In this document: in pieces, positions 3,138-47,960 of the stretch
How the letters are laid out: each line of letters begins with the position of its first letter
Position numbering within the stretch: position 1 is the stretch's first letter
Source: a bacterium
Lineage (GTDB): Bacteria; Patescibacteriota; Minisyncoccia; UBA6257; 02-FULL-45-10c
Assembly: GCA_021786945.1 (NCBI GenBank)
Contig: JAJYMK010000003.1
Span: 393,471-457,470 of the forward strand
Reading direction: 5' to 3'
DNA: 64,000 bases
Made by a program: the position numbers and the translations under genes
The notes under the pieces: model-generated
Seen by the model: only the letters and a program-made list of their open reading frames with translations
The model's database searches: none
Told to the model about the DNA's origin: nothing

Positions 3138-4811
3138 ATGACAAATATTCTTAAAAATAGGTTTTTTATAGGCTTTTTAGCCTCTACTATTATTTCATTG
3201 GCTTCTTTAAGTTTGGCTCACGCCGCTGAAATAACAGTAACAACCTACAACGTTGATGGTAATACAATTTCCGCAAACAGCGCCCTTTTGGAAGGAATCG
3301 TTGACGTTACCAGTCATCCGGCCGAAGTATGGTTTGAATACGGAACCAGTAATTTCTTAGGGCAATCCACGGCTAAAAATATGGAAGGTTTGAATTTTTC
3401 TGCCAAAAAATTCGGCGCAGTAATTTCCGGTTTGACCGCCAATACTACTTATTATTTTCAAGCTGTAGGAAGAAATATCGATACAAATCTTGAAGTCAGA
3501 GGCCAACTTCTTACCTTCTCAACGAACAATACAGTAATACAGAGTAACTACTCAAATTCAACAGACGCAAACAGCGGATATTATACATCTAGTTCTGCTC
3601 CGGAAGTTACAACTAATCCGGCCATACTCGATTCAATAGATGTAAATTCCGCCACATTGGATTCATACATAAAATCAAACGGATCAAATACCGTAGCCTG
3701 GTTTGAATATGGAACCAATGATAGTCTTGGACAAGCAACTGAAGATTGGGGTGTAAGCGTAACCGCTTATCAAGTAGATTTCCAGAAAAAAATAACCGGG
3801 TTAATGCCGGATACAATTTATTATTTCAGGGCAGCTGCCAGAAACGACTACGGCACAATCTATGGAAGTACTTATGTGTTTAAAACAAAAGAAATAGCAA
3901 CCGGCATAACTTTTAGCCAGCCAACCGTCCTCACTTCTCCGGCGATGCTTATAAAAGACAACTCTGCCTTATTAAATGGTAGCGCTATAGCCAATAATGC
4001 CGAAACAAATGTCTGGTTTGAATGGAGCGAAGATCCAAATATGAATAATGGCGTAAATAGAAACGTTAGCCAAAGTATCGGCGCCGGTAGCAATGAAGTT
4101 TATGCCGCCTATTCACTTACCAATTTAACCGTAAATAAAACCTACTATTTTAGATTGGTTGCCCAAAACTCATATGGAACAACCAGAGGTAATATAAATA
4201 AATTTACAACTATTCACTACGTAGCCCCAACCCAAACCGTAAAGACTGTTAATGCTTCAAACGGAACTCAGGTGGCTCAGATATCGGTAAATAACGATGC
4301 GATATCGTTAAGTGGCGAATTCGACAACAATAATCCGAGAGCGGGAACGAAAACCGTCTACGCGCTAAGTTACACAAATAATACTAATTTGGTAATAAGA
4401 GACGCCGTTTTAAAAGTAACCCTTCCCAATGAGGTAAGCTACCTTGCCTCAAGCTTTGCTAATGTAAATCAGAATGGAAATACAATTACTTTGAAAATTG
4501 GCGATATAGCCGCGAAAGGAACAGGGTCTGCCAGCATAAGAGTAAGAATAACCGATCTTGCAAAAGCTCAGGTTATAAAATTTACCACAAATCTTTCCTA
4601 TAAGATTAACGGTAAATCAGGTGAGGATAATATCTCCAATGAATTAAAAGTCAGCGAATATTCCTTGGCTGCGTCAGCTCTTGATCTTCTTGGCACAATA
4701 CTTAACAATATTTTTATCGATCTTCTTCTTGGAATAATTATAGGTGCTTATGGATACCATATAATCAATAAACAAAAACAAGTTGTTGATACCGAAGATC
4801 CGCTAAAATAA
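3138..4811 (+). CDS. secreted cell-surface protein with three Fn3-like repeats of about 115 aa (WFEYGT...TYYF...RN), a DUF11-like domain and a C-terminal TM anchor
   Basis: N-terminal signal peptide; repeats containing VWFEYGTSNFLGQ / AWFEYGTNDSLGQ / VWFEWSEDPNMNNG and TTYYFQAVGRN / TIYYFRAAARN / KTYYFRLVAQN; hydrophobic C-terminus LLGIIIGAYGYHII. Confidence 0.6.
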   Translation: MTNILKNRFFIGFLASTIISLASLSLAHAAEITVTTYNVDGNTISANSALLEGIVDVTSHPAEVWFEYGTSNFLGQSTAKNMEGLNFSAKKFGAVISGLTANTTYYFQAVGRNIDTNLEVRGQLLTFSTNNTVIQSNYSNSTDANSGYYTSSSAPEVTTNPAILDSIDVNSATLDSYIKSNGSNTVAWFEYGTNDSLGQATEDWGVSVTAYQVDFQKKITGLMPDTIYYFRAAARNDYGTIYGSTYVFKTKEIATGITFSQPTVLTSPAMLIKDNSALLNGSAIANNAETNVWFEWSEDPNMNNGVNRNVSQSIGAGSNEVYAAYSLTNLTVNKTYYFRLVAQNSYGTTRGNINKFTTIHYVAPTQTVKTVNASNGTQVAQISVNNDAISLSGEFDNNNPRAGTKTVYALSYTNNTNLVIRDAVLKVTLPNEVSYLASSFANVNQNGNTITLKIGDIAAKGTGSASIRVRITDLAKAQVIKFTTNLSYKINGKSGEDNISNELKVSEYSLAASALDLLGTILNNIFIDLLLGIIIGAYGYHIINKQKQVVDTEDPLK

Positions 4812-14125: not shown

Positions 14126-15829
14126 TTATGGCTGCACCACTCCCCCTTGTTGGCCAATAGTAATATCATTTGGCAATGCGGTGGTAATCTGATCAACTTT
14201 TAATTCAATAGAATTATTTGTAAATGCATCCGTTGCTTTCACGGTAGCCTCGCCAATAAGCGGCATATAATTTGCAATCTGAGAAGAAGACGGTGTGGCC
14301 TCTATCTGAAAAACAGCTCCAGCAGGATCGTCCACAAAACCCTTATTGGCTGGCAACTTATCCAGATTCCAGACCATTTCATTTGTTTTTTCATCAAATG
14401 TGGGCGCATTTCCAAAATCACTCTTGGCAATACCCGTAAATTTAACCCCGTCTTTGAGCTTGGCCCTTATTTCGATACCAGAAAAATCGGTAGCAAAACT
14501 TCTAAGATCCCAATGAACTGTAAAATTAGTAGCTTGGCCAACTTTTGGAGGCATGGAACCATTATTTAAAATTCCGGAGTCGGCATCTCTAAAATATGCT
14601 GCCGAAGACAAAGAAATACTTCCCGCTACTTTTGTTTCTATTTTTAAAATATTATAAGTTTTACTGGCATTCAAAGATTGCGGCACAGTCGGAGATTCAA
14701 TTTCAACCTTCACATTCAAAATAAAATCTTTATCTCCCAGTCTTCTGACGGGATAATTATTAGAGGTTTTAATGTTGAAATAAACAAATCCGGCGCTTCG
14801 CGGAGCAATATAATTAAGTTCCGGGGAATTACTTGAATTCCAAATTAAAGTATTATCCGACTTTCTAAAAACCGCCCTGGTATCCAAAGAGCCGAGATCA
14901 AAAAGCTCGCCCTGAAGCTGAGCCCTTACAACGGCATCTCTCAAAGGAACGTCGGAATTATTTATATAACTGATTACATATTTTAAACTATCTCCGGGAA
15001 CAGCAATGTAATCAGATTTATCATTAAGAATAACCCCTAAGGAAAGCGGAGATGGGGAAATAACAAGATTAACATCATTTAACTCCACAAAATAATCTTT
15101 GTCGCCCAAACTAATTTTAAATTTAGGTTTAAATGTGACTGTGGAATTATCCGGACCTATTACGCTACCCTTTATGGTAAATTTACCCTCTGATCCTTTT
15201 CTTAGATCGCCCAACTCCCAGACATTATTACCACTATCGGGTTTGGAATCCGAACTTAAAAAAGTAAAATTGGCCGGATATTCAACGCTAAATTCCAATC
15301 CATAAAAATCAACGTCGGAAACATTTTTGTAGTCAACGCCTACCTCAAATTCTTCACCGCTAAAAACTTTTTCCGGGGCTTTAATTTGTATATCGGCTCC
15401 ACTATTTAAAATTTTTATATCCTGTTCTGATTCTTTTTCGTACTTAGAAGAACCCAAAGAATAAGAAACTAAAACTTTTATTTTTTGAGTTTCATTTATA
15501 CCCCTTAAAAAAACTAAATTATATTTTTCGGAAACCAAGCTTCCCTGCCCCAAATCTCCGATATCCTTACTGTCAACCAATTTTTCCGTATTACTACCGA
15601 CAAAAGCCGCGCCATCGGGAATAGTAACGATAAGTATGACGTCTTTCAAAACAGAGCTCATCTGATTGCTAAATTCCACCTTAAAATCAAATGGTACTCC
15701 GGCCATAATTTCTTTAGGGGCAACCAAACCAACATCAAGATTTTGGCTGTTGTTATCAAAAATATAAAAAAGACTTATCCCTATAATAGCTACCAAAACT
15801 ATAATCGTAATTTTAAAAATATTATTCAT
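14126..15829 (-). CDS. large secreted or membrane-anchored beta-rich surface protein, DUF11-like repeat domains (tentative)
   Basis: N-terminal TM/signal anchor, 567 aa rich in N, S, T, G and V with repeated beta-strand-like segments; no catalytic motif recognised. Confidence 0.4.
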   Translation of the reverse strand: MNNIFKITIIVLVAIIGISLFYIFDNNSQNLDVGLVAPKEIMAGVPFDFKVEFSNQMSSVLKDVILIVTIPDGAAFVGSNTEKLVDSKDIGDLGQGSLVSEKYNLVFLRGINETQKIKVLVSYSLGSSKYEKESEQDIKILNSGADIQIKAPEKVFSGEEFEVGVDYKNVSDVDFYGLEFSVEYPANFTFLSSDSKPDSGNNVWELGDLRKGSEGKFTIKGSVIGPDNSTVTFKPKFKISLGDKDYFVELNDVNLVISPSPLSLGVILNDKSDYIAVPGDSLKYVISYINNSDVPLRDAVVRAQLQGELFDLGSLDTRAVFRKSDNTLIWNSSNSPELNYIAPRSAGFVYFNIKTSNNYPVRRLGDKDFILNVKVEIESPTVPQSLNASKTYNILKIETKVAGSISLSSAAYFRDADSGILNNGSMPPKVGQATNFTVHWDLRSFATDFSGIEIRAKLKDGVKFTGIAKSDFGNAPTFDEKTNEMVWNLDKLPANKGFVDDPAGAVFQIEATPSSSQIANYMPLIGEATVKATDAFTNNSIELKVDQITTALPNDITIGQQGGVVQP

Positions 15830-17131: not shown

Positions 17132-17461
17132 TTATTCAGCGGAACCAACTTTCTGTCTGGTCTGCTTTCTGGAAAGGTCTCTGATATAGTAAAGTTTTGC
17201 TCTGGAAACTTTTTTTGGAGAACTTAAAACTTCCAATTTCTGAATCTTGGTGGAATGAAGAGGAAAAATCCTTTCTACTCCGACTCCTGCCAAAGTTGTC
17301 CTTACGGTAAAAGAAGATCCGATCTCAGAACCGTGCTTTCTGGCAATAACCATGCCGGAAAATTGAGCAATACGTTCTTTGTCGCCTTCTTTAACTTTTT
17401 CATAAACCTTTACATTCGCTCCCGGTTTAATCTTATTAAAAATTTCTTTGTTTATTGGCAT
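17132..17461 (-). CDS. rplS: 50S ribosomal protein L19
   Basis: sequence typical of bL19 (..VKVYEKVKEGDKERIQ.F.G.VIA....G...SFTVR...GVGVERIFPLHSP.I..). Confidence 0.95.
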   Translation of the reverse strand: MPINKEIFNKIKPGANVKVYEKVKEGDKERIAQFSGMVIARKHGSEIGSSFTVRTTLAGVGVERIFPLHSTKIQKLEVLSSPKKVSRAKLYYIRDLSRKQTRQKVGSAE

Positions 17462-17527: not shown

Positions 17528-19045
17528 TTAATTCTGGGCATTATAAATCGAAAGGATTTCCGATCCGGATAAAGCCCTATTATACATAGCAACCTCATCA
17601 ATTAATCCACTAAAGAATAATCCATCCGCCCTTTTTCCTATTTTTAAAGTATCAGAATTGCTGCCATAAGTCGTAACCCCTGTAGAAACGGAGTTATTCA
17701 AACTTCCATTAATATATAATTCAACTTTACTTCCAGAAGTAAACACCCCGGATAATAAAACCCATTGATCTAACGGAACAACATTTACTGAAATGACATT
17801 TACGCTATTAGTAAATGCCGCGAAACTAAGAATTCCGTCTGGATTTATACGAATTTCGTAATTTCCTCCCTGGTTAGTACTTTGTTTTGTTAAAATCTCA
17901 CGATAATCGCCATATCCAGAAATATAAACCCAAGCTGTCCAACTAAAACTTGATAGTTGATCAACGGTTGAAGAATCCGGAACTTCAACATAACTAGAAC
18001 TTCCATTAAAACTTAAACCACTTCCACTTTTTCCAGCTACCCAACTCGCCCCATTTATACTTCCATTATTTCCATTTCCAGAAGAATCATAAACTGAAGT
18101 TCCAGTGTTTTCGTTAAATTTCCAATAACCAGTAAGACCGGAAGAGCTTAAAATTGAAAACAAATTAGATCCCGTTCCTGTACCAGTATCCGTATTAGTC
18201 ACAACGACATTCCAAGTTCCGACCGCGGCTCCAGTTATCGGGCAAGAACCTCCGGTAATAGAAGTGGCCGATGCTATAGTGAAACCGGTACAAGTTATAT
18301 CTGATTGGCCTGATTTTGTTAATTTTAATGTAGCGCCCGAAACAAAACCAGTTCCGGTAACCGAAGTCAAAGAAATTGAAGCATTATTATAGGCAAATTT
18401 AGAATTTATAGCCGTGACCGTAACCGTTCCCGGCCCTCCCCCTCCGGCAACATCGGTACCAAGAGCGGTATCAAGACTAAGATTATTTCCGATTTCAAAT
18501 CTGGTTGATTTTTGTCCCCCATCATTGGCAGCATTAGCAGCAAGGTATTTTTCTGATTCCATGGTAGCAGAAAGAGCCCAAGAGCCAGGGATATAGGTGT
18601 AGTAGTAACCATTGGCTACGGTATTGACTGGATCTATGGGAAGACTGGAGAAAAGGGTTCCGGCAGAAGATTGGACAGAAGCTAAATTAACCGGTATCCA
18701 GCCTGTACCGTCTATATTTCTGTAGTTGGCAGAAGTGGAGCAATGATAGCTACCACTGCTGAGAACTGGGAGACCAAGATCGGAACAATCAGCTTGGGCG
18801 CTGGGTAAAGATACGTAGACATCTCCATGGGTACCCATACTGGTACTACCTCCGAAGGATTAATACAGAAGAAGAGCTTGGTTGATAGATGTTAATTCTG
18901 TGATTCTATTGGCATCTCTGGATTGCTTAACTAACTGAGCTGGGTTTATGACTAAGAGAACTGTTGTTGCTAAGACTGCTAATATACCTATGACTATGAG
19001 TAGTTCTATGAGAGTGAAGGCTTTTTGGGATCCTATGCGATTCAT
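17528..19045 (-). pseudogene. type IV pilin-like N-terminus (18860-19045) and LamG lectin-domain ORF (17528-18838) in the same frame, interrupted by an in-frame TAA at 18860-18862
   Basis: prepilin class III signal KAFTLIELLIVIGILAVLA in the 61-aa ORF; 207-nt offset between the two ORFs is a multiple of 3; seven in-frame codons (SFGGSTS) link them; the downstream ORF has a LamG domain (WTAWVYISGYGDYREIL...LIDEVAMYNRALS) but no signal peptide of its own. Confidence 0.5.
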
Positions 19046-19093
19046 GTATTAATTATTTTAGCATAATTAAAAAAATGATAAAATTAACAAGAT

Positions 19094-21169
19094 ATGGCTT
19101 TTGTACCCAAAAAAAATATTTCCGGAAAACTTCACGACATCAAACATGACTCAAAGAAAAAATACCCGTCAACCGAAAAAAACGGAAAATTTTTATTTTC
19201 AAATAAAAAAAGCGGGGCTGCCAACAAAAAAAGTAAAAAATATCTGATAAGTGCAATATTTTTAATCATTATAATTTCTGCAAGTGTTTATTTTTTGTCC
19301 ATAAAAAATTCTATCGGAAACTCCATCAATTATATAAGGTACCAAATGCAAATTCTGAAAGAATCAGTTTTTAACACACAAACTTCAGAAATGTCCGATT
19401 CCCTGAATGCTATAAATTCGGAAATTCAAAACATGGGAACTAAAGCCAATAATTACGGAGTTATGGAGCTTCTCGGAATAATCGGCCAATTCAACAGCTC
19501 GCTCAAAGAAATCCCAGGAGCTTTCAATAGTATTTCCGCAATAAGCCAGAAATCAGCTCAAATTGCCGCAAATATAGATTATTTAAAAAATAATGCGCTT
19601 GGAATGATATTCGGCCAAAAAGGTGCGGAACTTACGGAAAAACTGGATTCCCTGGAAACAAATCTGGACTCACTTGAAAAACTTACAACAGAATTCAAAA
19701 GTCAGGCTCTCAAAATAAAAGATCTTAATTATAATTTAACCTCAATTTATAAAAATTTTGATGACAACTACCTTTCAATTGTATTAAGCGTATATAAAGC
19801 TAAAGAGTTAGTTTCGGCTCTTAACACTTTAATTAAATCTCCCGATGATACAAGAATATTATTACTTTTCCAGAACCCAACAGAAATCAGGCCGGCGGGA
19901 GGATTTATCGGCAGTTTCGGATACATAACTTTGAATCAAGGAAGTATAAAAGAAATAAAAATAGACGATATTTACAATGCCGACAGGCAACTAAATATTA
20001 AAGTTGCTCCACCTAGGCAGCTAAGCGCTATTACAACCGAATGGGGGGCTAGGGATGCCAACTGGTTTTTTGACTTCCCTGTTTCCGCACAAAAAGTTTC
20101 TTATTTCCTGGAAAATTCAAAATTATTCAATGATGATCAAATCAAATTCGAAAATGTGATAGCCATAAACACTAACTTTTTTAAATCTCTTATAGATATA
20201 ACCGGCCCAATAGAAATACCTCAGTATGAACTTACCATAAATAGTGATAATTTTTTGCAAGAACTTCAATATGAAGTGGAGGCCGGACAAGATAAAAAAC
20301 CGGGACAAAATCCAAAGAAAATTCTCTCGGTTTTAACACCGCTTCTTATGGATAAAATAAAAAACCTGGACGATAACGGAAAAATAAAAATGGTGAATGA
20401 AATTAAAAGATCTGTAGAGCAAAAAGATATAATGGCATTTTCCGTTAATGATGACCTGCAAAAAATATTCAGGCAATACGGATTATCCGGAGAACCTTTT
20501 GTAATTCCCAAATATTTTAGCGGTGATTATCTTGCCATAATTAACACAAACGTTGCCGGAGGAAAAAGTGACGCATTTATAAATCAACAAATACTGCTTC
20601 AAAGCCAAATTACCGAAGACGGAACAATCTACAACAACCTCTCCATATCCAGAACGCATTCCGGACAAAATGAGAAAGATTGGTGGTACAAATCGACCAA
20701 TAAAGATTTTATTAAAATTTGGCTGCCTTTAAATTCAGAAATTTTAAACGTATCAGGAAACAACGACTCTCCATATACATATATAAATCCGGCCAAAACA
20801 TTATTGAGAGACAACGATCTTAAAAATATGGAAAATACCTACATCTACAATGAAGATTATAAAATTTCCGAAGGGGAAGAAAATTATAAAAAATCCGTAG
20901 CAACTTGGATGACCACACCAGCGGGTAAAACCAAAGAATTAAAAATAACCTATAAAGAAAATAAGATTCTGGATATTAAGGACGGAGCGCAATTTAATTT
21001 CGTATTCGATAAGCAATCCGGGGTTCAAGGCTCTCTAGAGTATGAAATCATAGCTCCTCCCGGCTATATTTGGGCGGAATCCAAAAACACGAAATTTTCT
21101 TACGGAACACAGGATCCGCTTTACAGGGAAGGTATAAAGCTGACACTTAAACAAAACCTACCTCAATAA
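19094..21169 (+). CDS. large N-terminally membrane-anchored extracellular protein, DUF4012-like (tentative)
   Basis: N-terminal TM helix, 691 aa, segment LLLFQNPTEIRPAGGFIGSFGYI; this motif is recalled from DUF4012-family proteins and was not checked. Confidence 0.4.
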   Translation: MAFVPKKNISGKLHDIKHDSKKKYPSTEKNGKFLFSNKKSGAANKKSKKYLISAIFLIIIISASVYFLSIKNSIGNSINYIRYQMQILKESVFNTQTSEMSDSLNAINSEIQNMGTKANNYGVMELLGIIGQFNSSLKEIPGAFNSISAISQKSAQIAANIDYLKNNALGMIFGQKGAELTEKLDSLETNLDSLEKLTTEFKSQALKIKDLNYNLTSIYKNFDDNYLSIVLSVYKAKELVSALNTLIKSPDDTRILLLFQNPTEIRPAGGFIGSFGYITLNQGSIKEIKIDDIYNADRQLNIKVAPPRQLSAITTEWGARDANWFFDFPVSAQKVSYFLENSKLFNDDQIKFENVIAINTNFFKSLIDITGPIEIPQYELTINSDNFLQELQYEVEAGQDKKPGQNPKKILSVLTPLLMDKIKNLDDNGKIKMVNEIKRSVEQKDIMAFSVNDDLQKIFRQYGLSGEPFVIPKYFSGDYLAIINTNVAGGKSDAFINQQILLQSQITEDGTIYNNLSISRTHSGQNEKDWWYKSTNKDFIKIWLPLNSEILNVSGNNDSPYTYINPAKTLLRDNDLKNMENTYIYNEDYKISEGEENYKKSVATWMTTPAGKTKELKITYKENKILDIKDGAQFNFVFDKQSGVQGSLEYEIIAPPGYIWAESKNTKFSYGTQDPLYREGIKLTLKQNLPQ

Positions 21170-24276: not shown

Positions 24277-24795
24277 TTATCTAAAAAATACCTTACCGCT
24301 AATTGTTGCCGAATACCCCTGACCCTTCTTGGTTAAATCAACATTAACAATATCTATAAAATATCTCCCCCCCTCGACCCCTTTTATAAAATTAGAAACC
24401 GACTCATAAGGGCCAGTAACCAAAACCTTAAAATCAATTTTTCCCGGCTGATCACCAGATCCAATAGTCTCCTGGCCAAAAGTAAAGCCGAATTCAAGAT
24501 TATTTTTTCTGGCCATATCCTCTATTTCTTTAGAGAAAGATAATAATTGGTCGCGTGGGGGTAAAATATTTTCTAAAAAACTAAAATAAGGAGCGGCTTT
24601 ATCGGATTGACCGCGCAAAATAGCCAATGACTCCAAAGAATTTGATTTTGATGCCAAAGTAACATGCTGAAGTTTAATCTGGGAAAGCTTACTGTCCAAA
24701 TCGGACTGAAGCAAAAATACCATTACTATTAAAATAGTAATACCCAACAAATAGGCCCAATTACGCGTCAATAAATTTTTATAAAACTTATTCAT
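24277..24795 (-). CDS. N-terminally anchored protein, possibly PilO-like type IV pilus assembly component (tentative)
   Basis: N-terminal TM helix followed by a coiled-coil-like segment and a small alpha/beta domain, 172 aa; weak recognition only. Confidence 0.3.
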   Translation of the reverse strand: MNKFYKNLLTRNWAYLLGITILIVMVFLLQSDLDSKLSQIKLQHVTLASKSNSLESLAILRGQSDKAAPYFSFLENILPPRDQLLSFSKEIEDMARKNNLEFGFTFGQETIGSGDQPGKIDFKVLVTGPYESVSNFIKGVEGGRYFIDIVNVDLTKKGQGYSATISGKVFFR

Positions 24796-32452: not shown

Positions 32453-33013
32453 TTATTTCCTGCCTATTAAACCGCCAGACAAACAGTCGGCTATCGTTTC
32501 CAGAGCCTGTCTGCCGGTATAAACCAGTTTTTCTTTTTCTATCACAGCATAAGCGCCTATGGGATGGACAAACATGGGTAACACTACCCCGCACAACTGC
32601 TTTCCGGTTTTCTTATCTTTCCATTCCTTCGACACCCAGCCCTTAAGCCAGATTCCGCTATTTTGGCTGAATTCAAACAGAACTTCCGGAGCGCCTTCAT
32701 TCTTTATACGGTCAAAATGATTAAGCGACTCCACCAAAACACCGATAACCGGCAATTTCCCCAGCAGATCAAAAATAATCCGCTTGAAAGTATTATTTTC
32801 AAAAAGCCGGCCAACTATGTAGGCCAGTATCAAAAAAACAACTACTTTAAAGGAAAAGTTCATCCAGTTGGATCTAAAAGGATTATATCCAATAGAAAGG
32901 ACAAACCCCCACACCCAATGCAACAAATAAAAAACCATTACCAGCACAAAGGCCAGTAAAAGTCCGTTTTTTAATACGGAAAACTGGGCTTTTATATCAG
33001 CCTTTAAATCCAT
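32453..33013 (-). CDS. membrane protein, possibly DUF502-like
   Basis: two N-terminal TM helices then a soluble domain; 186 aa; family assignment weak. Confidence 0.3.
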   Translation of the reverse strand: MDLKADIKAQFSVLKNGLLLAFVLVMVFYLLHWVWGFVLSIGYNPFRSNWMNFSFKVVVFLILAYIVGRLFENNTFKRIIFDLLGKLPVIGVLVESLNHFDRIKNEGAPEVLFEFSQNSGIWLKGWVSKEWKDKKTGKQLCGVVLPMFVHPIGAYAVIEKEKLVYTGRQALETIADCLSGGLIGRK

Positions 33014-33031
33014 ATTTCCTCCCCTTATTAT

Positions 33032-33565
33032 CTAAGATTTCTTAGGTTCTAATAAGAACTTTACAATAAAAGCGCTTACAAAAGCAATAACAATCCCACC
33101 GGCAATATCCAGCGGCCAATGAACACCAACGTATATTCTAGCCAAGCCCATTAGTAATAAACTGACTATAAAAATAGCTGACCATTTTTTATAACCTAAA
33201 TAATACAATGAAAAAGCTAACGCAAAATAAAAAGTCATATGGCCCGAAGGGAAAGAAGCTTCCGTAGCGGATTGATTTATTATCGGAACTAAATTTAGTT
33301 CTACAAAAGGCCTAGTTCTGAAAAAAAAGAATCGGAAAGTTTCCGTTAAAATTCCCCTGGACAACAAAACTACCAAAGAGATAAAGCTTAAATTAAATAA
33401 TTTATCTTTTATTTTATTGGAAGAAAAAATAAGAAATAATAATATTAAAATTAATATATAACCCAAATAATCGGCAAAAAATATAGCCGATAAATCAAGA
33501 AGCCGGCTCTTGCCGACTAATTGATGAATAAAATTAAAAATTTGTAAATCTATTGAAAACAACAT
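33032..33565 (-). CDS. PAP2-family phosphatase (undecaprenyl-diphosphatase / phosphatidic acid phosphatase-like)
   Basis: PAP2 motifs ...RTRPF, PSGHMT, RIYVGVHWPLDIAGG. Confidence 0.75.
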   Translation of the reverse strand: MLFSIDLQIFNFIHQLVGKSRLLDLSAIFFADYLGYILILILLFLIFSSNKIKDKLFNLSFISLVVLLSRGILTETFRFFFFRTRPFVELNLVPIINQSATEASFPSGHMTFYFALAFSLYYLGYKKWSAIFIVSLLLMGLARIYVGVHWPLDIAGGIVIAFVSAFIVKFLLEPKKS

Positions 33566-44596: not shown

Positions 44597-44717
44597 TTAT
44601 AACCGGCGTAACCTACTTTCTCGCCCAACAAATTAGGACAATATCATCGGTCTTAAACATTTTCACTTCTCTGTTCGGAATGGGAAGAGGTGGGTCATGT
44701 TTAAGTAAAACACCAGC
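44597..44717 (-). rRNA. rrf: 5S ribosomal RNA
   Basis: reverse complement contains CCCATTCCGAACAGAGAAGTGAAA...GACCGATGATA, matching the 5S loop B/C consensus; terminal helix GCTGGTG/CGCCGGT. Confidence 0.7.
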
Positions 44718-44809
44718 TAAAAGAAAAATTCGTGGGGTTTCTTAATCAATCTCAAAGATAAATTCTAACTTAAGAGGTCAGAATCTCTTATACAAAACTT
44801 CAAAAAATT

Positions 44810-47800
44810 GAAATCTTGTATAAAAGAAAATCGGTCTATTAGTACTACTCGACTAAACACATTACTGTGCTTACATCTGTAGCCTATCAACGCAGTAGTC
44901 TTCTGCGGACCTAACACATAGTCTCAGGGTGGGCTTCGTGCTTAGATGCTTTCAGCGCTTATCCCTTCCGAGCAATAGCTACCCAGCATTTCAGTTGGTA
45001 CCAAAGCTGGCAGACCAGAGGCTCGTTCAATCCGGTCCTCTCGTACTAGGATCGACTCCCTTCAAGTGTTTATAAGTGTTCTTCACACTAACGCCTACAG
45101 CAGGTAGAGACCAACCTGTCTCACGACGGTTTGAACCCAGCTCACGTATCCTTTTAAATGGCGAACAGCCATACGCTTGGGACCTTCTCCAGCCCCGCGC
45201 TAGGATGAGCCGACATCGAGGTGCCGAGCTTCGTCGTCGATAGGGACTCTCGGACGAAACTAGCCTGTTATCCCCAGGGTAACTTTTAGCCGTTGTCTCC
45301 GACCTTTCTATAAAGAATCGTCGGGTCGCTAAGTTCCGCTTTCGCGTCTGCGCGACTTGTAGGTCTTGCAGTCAAGCTGGCTTGTGCCTTTACGCGTCCA
45401 GCCCGATTTCCATCCGGGCTAAGCCAACCTTGATAAACTCCTCCATTACTCTTTAGGAGGAAAATGCCCCATTTAAACTGTCCAGCAGGCACTGTCTCAG
45501 TCAGGCTTACAGGAAAACCCTGATTCCTAACCGGTTAGGCTTTAAAGAATTAAAAATGGGTGTTTCATTGGCGGATCCATTTACCCCGAAAGATAAACTT
45601 CAAATCCTACCCACTACGCTACGTATTAAACCTTTAAAGTCAATGCCAACACACAGTAAAGCTCCTGGGGTCTTTTCGTCTTGCTGCAGGTATCCCGCGT
45701 CTTCACGGGAATCGCATTTTCATCGAGCTCTTCGTTGAGACAGTTCTCCGATCATTACACCTTTCATGCGCTTCAGAACTTACCTGAAAAGGAATTGCGC
45801 TACCTTTGGACGGTTATAGTTACCGCCGACATTGACGAGGGCTTCGGGCGATAAGCACTATACATTGCTGCATAGCACCTTCACCGTTAACCTTCTCGCA
45901 TCGGTCAGGTGTCACCCCCTATACATCCACTTACGTGTTAGCAGGGAGTTGTGTTTTTGGTAAACAGTTGCCAGAGATACTTTAGCTGCGGCCCTTCTTG
46001 CGAAGGGCAGTCCTTATTGCGAACTTACGGACGCTTTTTTGCCGAGTTCCTTAACGAAGACTCACTCGTTCCCCTGAGGCTTCTCGCCTCACCCACCAGT
46101 GTCGGTTTACGGTACGATGTCTAATATATTAACCTTAGAAGTTTTTCTTGGAAGGCTCTTCATCTGTATTAGCTAAGTAAAAACTTAGCCTTACGTCAAT
46201 TCGCGAAACTTGCCATTAAAGGCAGATATCCGGATTTGCCTGGATACCGAATCTGAAAATCAGCGACGCCAAACCATTAAGGCGCACAGACTTATTTCCT
46301 CCGTCCCTCCCTCGAATATATCAGACGGGCCGGAATATTAACCGGCTTACCCTTCAGCTGCGGCTTTCGCCATGACCTTAGGATCGCCTAACCCGTGGTT
46401 GATTGCCATTGCCACGGAAACCTAGGATTTGCGGGGATTATGTTTCTCACATAATTTGGGATTACTTATACCAACATTCTCTCTTCCTAACGCTCCATCG
46501 CCCCTCGCGGGTACGACTTCACAGCAGATAGAAATGCTCTCCTACCAGATACTATCTTTACGATAGTAAATTCGCGCCTTCGGTATCTTGCTTAGCCCCG
46601 ATACATTTTTGGCGCAACCAACCATTGAATAGTGAGTTGTTACACACTCTTTAAAGGATGGCTACCTCTAAGCCAACCTCCTATCTGTCTATGGTTGATT
46701 ACTACCTTTTACACTTAGCAAGAATTTAGGGACCTTAGACGGCGATCTGGGCTCTTCCCCTCGCGACCGTGAAGCTTTGCCCCCACGGTCTAACTAGTAA
46801 TCACGATTCCTGGTATTCGGAGTTTGATTGGTCATCCGGTCTTTCGACCTGTGAGGACCATCCAGTGCTCTACCCCCAGAAAATTTAGGATTACCGCCAG
46901 TCCGAAAACTGTTTCGGAGAGAACCAGCTATCACTAAGCTCGATTAGCTTTTCACTTCTTACCCCAACTCATCCAAGGGTGTTGCACAACCCACTAGTTC
47001 GGACCTCCCCCTAATGTTTAGTTAGAGTTCATCCTGGTCAGGGCAAGCTCGCTTAGCTTCGGGTCTTACATAAACGACTGATTTCGCGCTATTAACACTC
47101 GGTTTCCCTACGGCTTCCCCGTCTCTACCGGGTTAGCCTTGCCGTTTACATAAAGTCGTTGGCTCATTCTTCAATAGGCACCACGTTAGCCGCAATGCAT
47201 CCGAAGATGCACTTTTAGCCTTCGAGTCCTTGTAAGCATATGGTTTCAGGTACTATTTCATCGCCCTCGCCGGGCTGCTTTTCACCTTTCCCTCACGGTA
47301 CTGGTTCACTATCGGTCATCAAAAGTATTTAGCCTCACGAGATTAGTACTCGTTGCTTCCTGCAAGGTTATGTGGCCTCGCAGTACTCAAGATAGATACT
47401 CATAAATGAGTAACTCCGGTCTTTCACCGGTAGAAACGGAAAAGATTGAATTTTTTTATTTACGAGGCTATCACTCCCTATGGCTCCTCTTTCCAGAGGA
47501 TTCAATTAAAATTCAATTTTGTAACTCTTCTCTTCAAACACAACGAATAATGAACCAGAAGAGTTCACTATTCGATGGTTTGAAAAAGTTTCTATCTTAC
47601 AACCCTCAAGACTTGATAACTGAAGGGCCTGAATTGTTCATCGAGTTTAATCCCGAATTCCATCTCCAGATTTCAGAAACCTTATCGAAAGTTTGGGCTA
47701 CTCCCTTTTCGCTCGCCGCTACTTGGGGAATCACTGTTGTTTTTTATTCTTCCGCTTACTGAGAAGTTTCACTTCAGCGGATACGCTCTTCATTTCTTAC

Positions 47801-47960
47801 GAAACAAAGCAATTGCGGTTTACGCAATTAGGTTACCCCATTAGGAAATCTCCGGATCAAAGGTTGCTAAGCACCTCCCCGAAGCTTATCGCAGCTACAC
47901 CACGTCCTTCATCGCCTTTTGATGCCAAGGCATCCACCATACGCCCTTAATTTAACGTTT
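44810..47960 (-). rRNA. rrl: 23S ribosomal RNA (about 3.15 kb, ends approximate), not linked to a 16S gene
   Basis: reverse complement aligns by eye to 23S landmarks from 5' GGATGCCTTGGC and AGTAGCGGCGAGCGAA through the GTP-ase centre, peptidyl-transferase region (GGATAACAGGCT, CTCGATGTCGGCTC) and sarcin-ricin loop (CCTAGTACGAGAGGACC). Confidence 0.9.

Follow-up and report, generated by a model that had tools for sequence, protein, structure and literature searches.

Introduction

Patescibacteria are well known to possess type IV pili and several pilin genes (PMC9763046; PMC11623550). For cultivated Saccharibacteria, PMC11623550 describes type IV pili and several pilin genes with roles in host attachment and twitching. 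A pilin encoded in two pieces is known from Geobacter sulfurreducens, in which it is split into PilA-N (GSU1496) and PilA-C (GSU1497), the latter having a signal peptide of its own; this split is ancient and conserved across species (PMC5174107).

The closest counterparts of the gene described here are the prepilin-LamG proteins of Patescibacteria (Paceibacteria-type), a family known from annotation. As judged from the sequence, the gene belongs to this family. It encodes the same leader followed by FTLIELL, the same alpha-1 helix and head motifs (YVS.P, GWIPV, LPIDP, YYYTY, ES.KY and DGG) and a C-terminal PF13385 domain, and it shares the architecture and 59–62% identity over 98% of the length with the closest full-length relative, P0002. 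In contrast to its relatives, only this copy has a TAA in place of a conserved Gln codon, and its middle module is shared by a few of them (P0002, P0005 and P0060).

A helix-only piece of ~60 residues accompanied by an adjacent downstream ORF for the globular part resembles the PilA-N/PilA-C pair of Geobacter (PMC5174107). However, the split observed here results from a single-base change seen in one population, the second ORF had no signal peptide, and the split was not conserved. The general system and the occurrence of several pilin paralogues in a small genome are shared with Saccharibacteria (PMC11623550), and a PilO-like gene was located 5 kb away in the window. Unlike the Saccharibacteria, the bacterium belongs to another class of Patescibacteria, its LamG-tailed family is known from sequence alone, and this copy is interrupted. 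No substantive difference was seen from the ordinary nonsense pseudogenes of bacterial multigene surface-protein families, where one transition hits one paralogue and the rest of the ORF stays intact.

Organization of the locus

The window, i.e., the whole stretch of 64,000 nucleotides that was analysed, contained the gene on its minus strand (Table 1). The ATG at 19045-19043 opened a 61-codon ORF, MNRIGSQKAFTLIELLIVIGILAVLATTVLLVINPAQLVKQSRDANRITELTSINQALLLY, which started with MNRIGSQKAFTLIELL, ended with ...ALLLY (coding positions 18863-19045) and was closed by an in-frame TAA at 18862-18860. In the same frame, this TAA was followed by seven sense codons, SFGGSTS (18859-18839), and by a second ATG (18838-18836), from which a 436-codon ORF (17528-18838) extended to a TAA at 17530-17528. 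The distance between the two ATGs was 207 nt, or 69 codons. The coordinates, the in-frame TAA, the seven-codon gap and the 207-nt offset had all been given in a preliminary description of this DNA and proved exact when the sequence was read again.

Table 1. Features of the interrupted prepilin-LamG gene; positions refer to the window.
Feature	Position	Strand	Basis and remarks
Possible extended -10 promoter element TGCTAAAAT	19055..19063	-	Putative, read from the sequence; ~9 nt upstream of the ATG
Prepilin leader MNRIGSQKA, 9 codons	19019..19045	-	PF07963 and TIGR02532; predicted cleavage after Ala9, before FTLIELL
Mature N-terminal alpha-1 helix, 52 codons, FTLIELL...ALLLY	18863..19018	-	Alignment of 18 relatives; invariant Glu at mature position 5
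In-frame TAA nonsense codon, next base T	18860..18862	-	Replaces a conserved Gln codon (CAA to TAA)
Seven codons SFGGSTS, including GGAGG (18853-18849)	18839..18859	-	GGAGG 10 nt before ATG 18838; equals the conserved F-G-G coding motif
Rest of the pilin globular head	18461..18838	-	Cys pair C..HC; motifs GWIPV, LPIDP, YYYTY, ES.KY, DGG; now the N-terminus of the 436-codon ORF
Gly-rich linker and beta-rich middle module (PGTVTVTAINS...LFSIL)	18143..18460	-	Alignment; common to P0002, P0005 and P0060
C-terminal LamG / concanavalin-A-like jelly-roll domain	17531..18142	-	Pfam match 17555-18007 (PF13385)
Genuine gene stop, also TAA	17528..17530	-	Relatives stop at the equal position, ...IYNAQK/N

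No Shine-Dalgarno sequence was present between the putative TGCTAAAAT element and ATG 19045, therefore the transcript would have a very short leader or none. A simple promoter scan reported a weaker site at 19081-19052, which overlapped the TGCTAAAAT element. The block TAATTATGCTAAAATAATTAA was kept upstream of the closest paralogue, P0008, and the TGCTAAAAT/TAATTATGCTAAAATAATTAA block was absent upstream of the paralogues P0015 and P0047. A promoter common to the paralogues was therefore rejected, as the TGCTAAAAT block was shared with P0008 only and not with P0015 or P0047.

Domains and predicted structure

The 61-aa ORF matched PF07963 (N_methyl) with 30.8 bits in a Pfam search (cut-off 21.2) and TIGR02532 (IV_pilin_GFxxxE) with 25.5 bits (cut-off 16.3). 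The 436-aa ORF matched PF13385 (Laminin_G_3) with 94.5 bits (cut-off 27.6; E = 8.9e-27), and the match covered profile positions 1-150 of 151. No Pfam family was matched on the pilin head or on the middle module; units resembling the latter were repeated in P0060. The N-terminus had the form of a prepilin cleavage motif, MNRIGSQKA followed by FTLIELL, with Ala at position -1 as in P0002, P0003, P0008 and P0010. In the relatives, G, A or S occupied position -1 and was followed by an invariant F-T-L-x-E.

The 436-aa ORF had no hydrophobic segment at its N-terminus, the maximal Kyte-Doolittle mean over 15 residues being 0.51 within its first 60 residues versus 3.01 for the pilin helix, and no Lys or Arg occurred among its first 10 residues. 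The class III prepilin signal of the first ORF, the LamG/concanavalin-like domain of the second and the lack of a signal peptide on the latter, as initially described, were thus all borne out. A pilin has its helix and head in one polypeptide; at this locus the TAA at 18862-18860 parted the helix from the head. The locus is a disrupted member of the type IV pilin family and not an intact one.

An AlphaFold model was made of the closest full-length relative, P0002, standing in for the fused protein of the window. Residues 14-34 and 37-65 of this model were helical, and the helical part passed without a break into the head. The residue that corresponds to the stop, Q64, was located in the last helical turn, so the TAA cuts off the alpha-1 helix from the head. 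The LamG domain was modeled with a pLDDT of ~90, and confidence was low in the middle module. The best fold matches of this domain in the PDB were the lectin-like receptor-binding domains of clostridial neurotoxins, the lectin domains of trans-sialidases and the carbohydrate-binding domain 4 of AbnA (E ~1e-11). Judging by the modeled fold, the domain may bind a carbohydrate or another ligand.

Among 34 ORFs of the window that were scanned, the sole match to a prepilin peptidase or pilus assembly protein (PilB/C/D/M/N/O) was a PilO-like ORF at 24277-24795 (PF04350, E = 5.8e-07).

Homology across the stop codon

The joined sequence of both ORFs was used as the query of a homologue search, and 590 homologues were found, nearly all of them in metagenome genomes of Patescibacteria of the Paceibacteria type. 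Most combined PF07963 with PF13385, or with a Fib_succ_major or fn3 module at the C-terminus. The preliminary description had called a pilin N-terminus with a large lectin or adhesin tail typical of CPR bacteria, and this arrangement was indeed common among the homologues.

None of the 18 aligned relatives was interrupted where the stop occurs. The corresponding column was occupied by Q in 17 of them and by E in the remaining one; with P0100 (Q) added, a sense codon was present in all 19. Near-invariant residues flanked this column on either side, with A57 and L58 before it and F64, G65, G66, G71, Y77, S79 and P81 after it, and ~35 family-invariant columns were found in the part of the head downstream of the stop (18461..18838). 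When the pilin head was searched with tblastn, one ungapped alignment (19018-18461) crossed the stop. About two thirds of this conserved head lay inside the "second" ORF.

The sequence link between the ORFs far exceeds what chance would produce. As a single homology spans the stop and invariant residues are present on either side of it, comparison with the relatives identifies the two ORFs as one ancestral prepilin-LamG gene, halved by one in-frame TAA. The reading of the ORFs as halves of a single gene with a single in-frame stop, already made in the preliminary description, was supported by the 18 uninterrupted relatives, and the comparison of orthologues which it had proposed gave a sense codon at the stop position in every aligned relative. 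At no orthologous locus did the LamG part form a separate gene with a signal peptide, an arrangement that would speak against a split gene.

Origin of the stop codon

The paralogue P0008 reads TAT CAA TCC where the window reads TAT TAA TCC. In the column of the stop, CAA was present in P0008 and P0002, and CAG in P0004, P0018 and P0100. Since CAA occurred in both the paralogue from the same genome and the closest full-length relative, the codon comparison indicates that CAA (Gln) became TAA through one C-to-T transition at 18862.

An intact allele of this paralogue was sought both as protein and as DNA. Exact lookup of the protein with Q, K, E, L, S or Y at the stop position gave no match in a collection of 15 billion proteins; the 61-aa ORF was also missing from this collection, and only the 436-aa ORF was there. 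Two DNA pattern scans in which the mutated base was set to N gave 0 matches among JGI metagenome contigs. The intact ancestral state was thus reconstructed from the paralogues and homologues, which point to Gln. No positional orthologue by which to date the mutation was found either: a scan of genome contigs gave one pilin relative (L005) and distant LamG proteins, and the closest relatives, P0002 and P0004, were located in unrelated gene neighbourhoods.

Apart from the TAA at 18860-18862, no further stops or frameshifts were detected in the gene. It kept 83 of the 84 positions with a conservation of 85% or more across the family, including 66 of the 67 located downstream of the stop, which matches or exceeds the intact relatives. 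The 443 codons downstream of the stop thus showed no decay, so that the mutation must be very recent unless the downstream part has remained under selection. The lack of decay was read as a sign of a young mutation, with the same pattern being expected if the downstream part were expressed and selected.

The same sample yielded three intact paralogues that share the head of this gene. Of these, P0008 (Fib_succ_major tail) was found on the same contig as the gene, ~65 kb away, in an independent assembly, and P0015 (fn3) and P0047 (Fib_succ_major) both came from a different contig of that sample. A fourth, P0010 (LamG), is linked less directly, through its listing on the shared 696,638-base contig.

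Alternative explanations

Recent inactivation, a sequencing or assembly error and programmed read-through had been offered in the preliminary description as origins of the stop. The first was favoured by the ancestral Gln codon and by the undecayed downstream part, the second was disfavoured by the presence of the TAA in two independent assemblies, and the third found no support. An artefact that conceals an intact gene with CAA would be in keeping with the single-base errors known in metagenome assemblies and with the perfect conservation of the remainder of the gene. However, the 436-aa ORF was on record in five contigs, and the same TAA was found in both contigs that were retrieved, L001 and L002. 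These contigs come from separate samples, assembled with MEGAHIT (ERZ27236928 and ERZ27237183), and show 100% identity with the window over 7,311 and 4,962 bases, respectively. A random consensus error would not recur in such a manner, therefore the T was taken as the real majority base in the population, beside which a minority C allele may exist. Also, the site at 18862 was in neither a homopolymer nor a repeat, and the protein collection held no sense-codon version, hence an artefact was considered very unlikely. The stop was reproducibly present in the population; as the three assemblies apparently represent one clonal population, they confirm the base call but do not show for how long the allele has existed. 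Programmed read-through or other recoding, for example by Gln insertion at UAA, would provide a useful level of a full-length pilin-LamG protein spanning ...ALLLY-Q-SFGGSTSMGTHGDVYVSLPSAQADCSDLGLPVLSSGSYHCSTSANYR. The two halves were in frame and undecayed, and Gln, which is typically inserted by near-cognate decoding of UAA, would exactly restore the ancestral protein. Nevertheless, TAA terminated 44 of the 51 ORFs in the window, this gene included, and 14 of the 44 had the TAA-T context. Same-frame neighbours parted by TAA (FtsW|YceG and QueA|TruB) were complete, unrelated genes with full Pfam coverage. In this genome, TAA functions as a genuine stop and has not been reassigned; genome-wide recoding of TAA was ruled out by the stop-codon usage and by the completeness of FtsW/YceG and QueA/TruB. 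The stop of the first ORF was itself in the TAA-T context, and in E. coli UAA followed by U is the most efficient (tightest) context for termination. No suppressor tRNA with a UUA anticodon was found among the 9 tRNAs of the window. A structure 3' of the TAA that could promote read-through, suggested earlier as a feature to look for, was not detected: the 111 nt comprising the stop and ~100 nt after it folded no better than shuffled sequences (z = -0.07). The stop was conserved in no relative (18 aligned and P0100), therefore no conserved recoding signal was present, and programmed read-through was judged highly unlikely.

A functional fission of the Geobacter PilA-N/PilA-C type was also weighed, in which the 52-residue helix pilin would be assembled, and the head-LamG protein would be made separately from the GGAGG-ATG and join the filament. 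The cut coincides with the end of alpha-1, the point at which the pilins of Geobacter are divided; a strong Shine-Dalgarno-like GGAGG 10 nt before the internal ATG and the position of this ATG 21 nt after the stop would favour coupled re-initiation, and insertion of a stop codon is a proposed route to gene fission by separation (PMC5174107). However, the 436-aa ORF had no signal peptide and no evident route through the membrane, whereas its Geobacter counterpart, GSU1497, has such a peptide (PMC5174107). Although GGAGG (18853-18849)-N10-ATG 18838 resembles a ribosome-binding site, it equals the codons of the near-invariant F-G-G (F64, G65 and G66) and of a conserved Met, and the same GGAGG-ATG occurred inside the intact genes P0008 and P0100. 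As it is coding sequence in intact relatives, the internal start was not regarded as an adaptation. The split was unique to this population among the relatives examined, and no other split copy was found among the best 120 of the 590 relatives. Although the record of P0100 begins at the internal Met, an intact pilin gene with a TTG start is present on its contig; recurrent splitting, with P0100 as a second case, was ruled out, as P0100 is a start-site mis-call. Such a functional fission seemed very improbable. A gene fission caught in the act, in which the 52-residue pilin, similar in size to Geobacter PilA-N, may enter pili, the head-LamG part may be kept through GGAGG-N10-ATG re-initiation or low-level Gln insertion, and the TAA may tune or repurpose the gene rather than inactivate it, was likewise rated as very improbable. 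If functional fission or read-through were true, the locus would be a rare snapshot of how Geobacter-type split pilins arise. Finally, the gene might be a silent or switchable copy, re-activated by recombination with its paralogues in a form of antigenic or phase variation. At least four paralogues (P0010 being less directly linked) had a very similar N-terminal 600 nt, and the mean column identity to P0008 was ~90%, the upstream promoter-like block included. Against this, no repeats, invertible elements or simple-sequence tracts were present at the site, the stretches identical between paralogues were short (~30 nt or less), and all three assemblies were in the same state. Moreover, unlike classic silent cassettes, the gene had a promoter-like element and a start codon of its own. 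A switchable copy was held to be extremely unlikely.

Proposed consequences of the mutation

We proposed, with good confidence, that the stop was a genuine and recent nonsense mutation that left a pseudogene or null allele of a prepilin-LamG gene, not a case of programmed recoding. The ancestral gene began with a leader and the alpha-1 helix; then came a globular head specific to the lineage, a beta-rich middle module and, as its tail, a LamG lectin-like domain. The change of CAA to TAA struck the last turn of the alpha-1 helix. Translation ending at the TAA would give a 61-residue pre-protein, from which cleavage by the prepilin peptidase would leave a stub of 52 residues consisting of the helix only. 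Re-initiation may take place at ATG 18838, aided by the fortuitous GGAGG 10 nt upstream; the product of such re-initiation would carry neither leader nor signal peptide, and would probably be cytoplasmic and unable to join a pilus. Near-cognate misreading of the UAA with insertion of Gln would yield trace amounts of the full-length protein at most. The lost function is presumably covered by paralogues with other C-terminal modules.

In a redundant, modular repertoire of adhesin-pilins, it is unremarkable for one copy to be lost. The loss would represent one case of turnover in a multi-copy set of pilins, which ultrasmall episymbionts are thought to use for host attachment.

Implications for annotation

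Public records contain the 436-residue product only. The locus is best entered as a single interrupted prepilin-LamG pseudogene, rather than as a 436-residue "LamG protein" and an unannotated 61-codon ORF upstream of it. The conserved FGG..M coding motif of the pilin family mimics a ribosome-binding site with a start codon, and it can mislead gene callers even on intact genes, as in P0100. The relatives appear at NCBI under the names 'prepilin-type N-terminal cleavage/methylation domain-containing protein' or 'LamG-like jellyroll fold domain-containing protein'.

Start-site annotation and upstream regions of the pilin genes

The public record of P0100, a relative listed as starting at the Met that matched the internal ATG of the split pilin, was 343 aa long; contig region L036 encoded an intact pilin of 406 aa with a TTG start (306-1526). 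Judging from this reading frame, P0100 is a start-site mis-call. The gene caller was attracted to its internal GGAGG-ATG, which was a product of the conserved FGG..M coding motif, and other members of the family may be similarly mis-annotated.

An extended -10-like block, TGCTAAAAT, was found ~9 nt 5' of the ATG of the split pilin (window 19046-19075, minus strand), and no Shine-Dalgarno sequence was present between this block and the ATG. Such an arrangement suggests that the pilin mRNA is near-leaderless. It was also observed that a 21-nt block, TAATTATGCTAAAATAATTAA, was common to the upstream regions of the split pilin and its intact paralogue P0008 (L003 5970-6000). The block was missing upstream of the intact paralogues P0015 and P0047.

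Genomic setting of the pilin genes

The pilin paralogues of the source genome were single and dispersed, with ribosomal-protein or other core genes as direct neighbours, and were not grouped as a pilus operon (window 17132-17461, L003 4983-7245, L038 921-2730 and L037 1501-4212). Among the window ORFs scanned, the only match to pilus machinery was a PilO-like ORF, located ~5 kb from the pilin. Two large ORFs were probably further surface proteins, as proposed from their repeats (Table).

Table. Features of the window and gene neighbours of the pilin paralogues
Feature	Location	Strand	Remarks
Large ORF	window 3138-4811		DUF11 / CLIPPER-like and fibronectin-type repeats
Large ORF	window 14126-15829		DUF11 / CLIPPER-like and fibronectin-type repeats
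rplS	window 17132-17461		split pilin immediately upstream
DUF4012 protein, 691 aa	window 19094-21169		divergent neighbour of split pilin
PilO (pilus assembly protein) match, 172-aa ORF	window 24277-24795	-	PF04350, E = 5.8e-07
186-aa ORF	within window 32453-33565	-	no family match; in frame with PAP2 ORF, 18 nt after its TAG
PAP2-family ORF	window 33032-33565	-	terminates at TAG
23S rRNA	within window 44601-47960	-	followed by 5S rRNA
P0008	L003		rplJ-rplL, then P0008
P0047			secE-nusG-rplK, then P0047
P0015			neighbour gyrB

rRNA genes, composition and stop codons

The 23S rRNA spanned 3,141 nt against a model of 2,925 positions, which implies insertions of ~200 nt in total. No match to 16S rRNA was obtained in the whole window, including the stretch of ~1.2 kb 5' of the 23S gene in which a linked 16S would be expected, and therefore the gene for 16S rRNA is apparently not linked to the 23S gene.

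The G+C content of the window was 37%. Stop codon usage was strongly skewed, with TAA terminating 44 of the 51 ORFs, TAG six and TGA one. The PAP2 profile was completely covered by the PAP2-family ORF, hence this ORF and the 186-aa ORF in the same frame were probably two separate genes.
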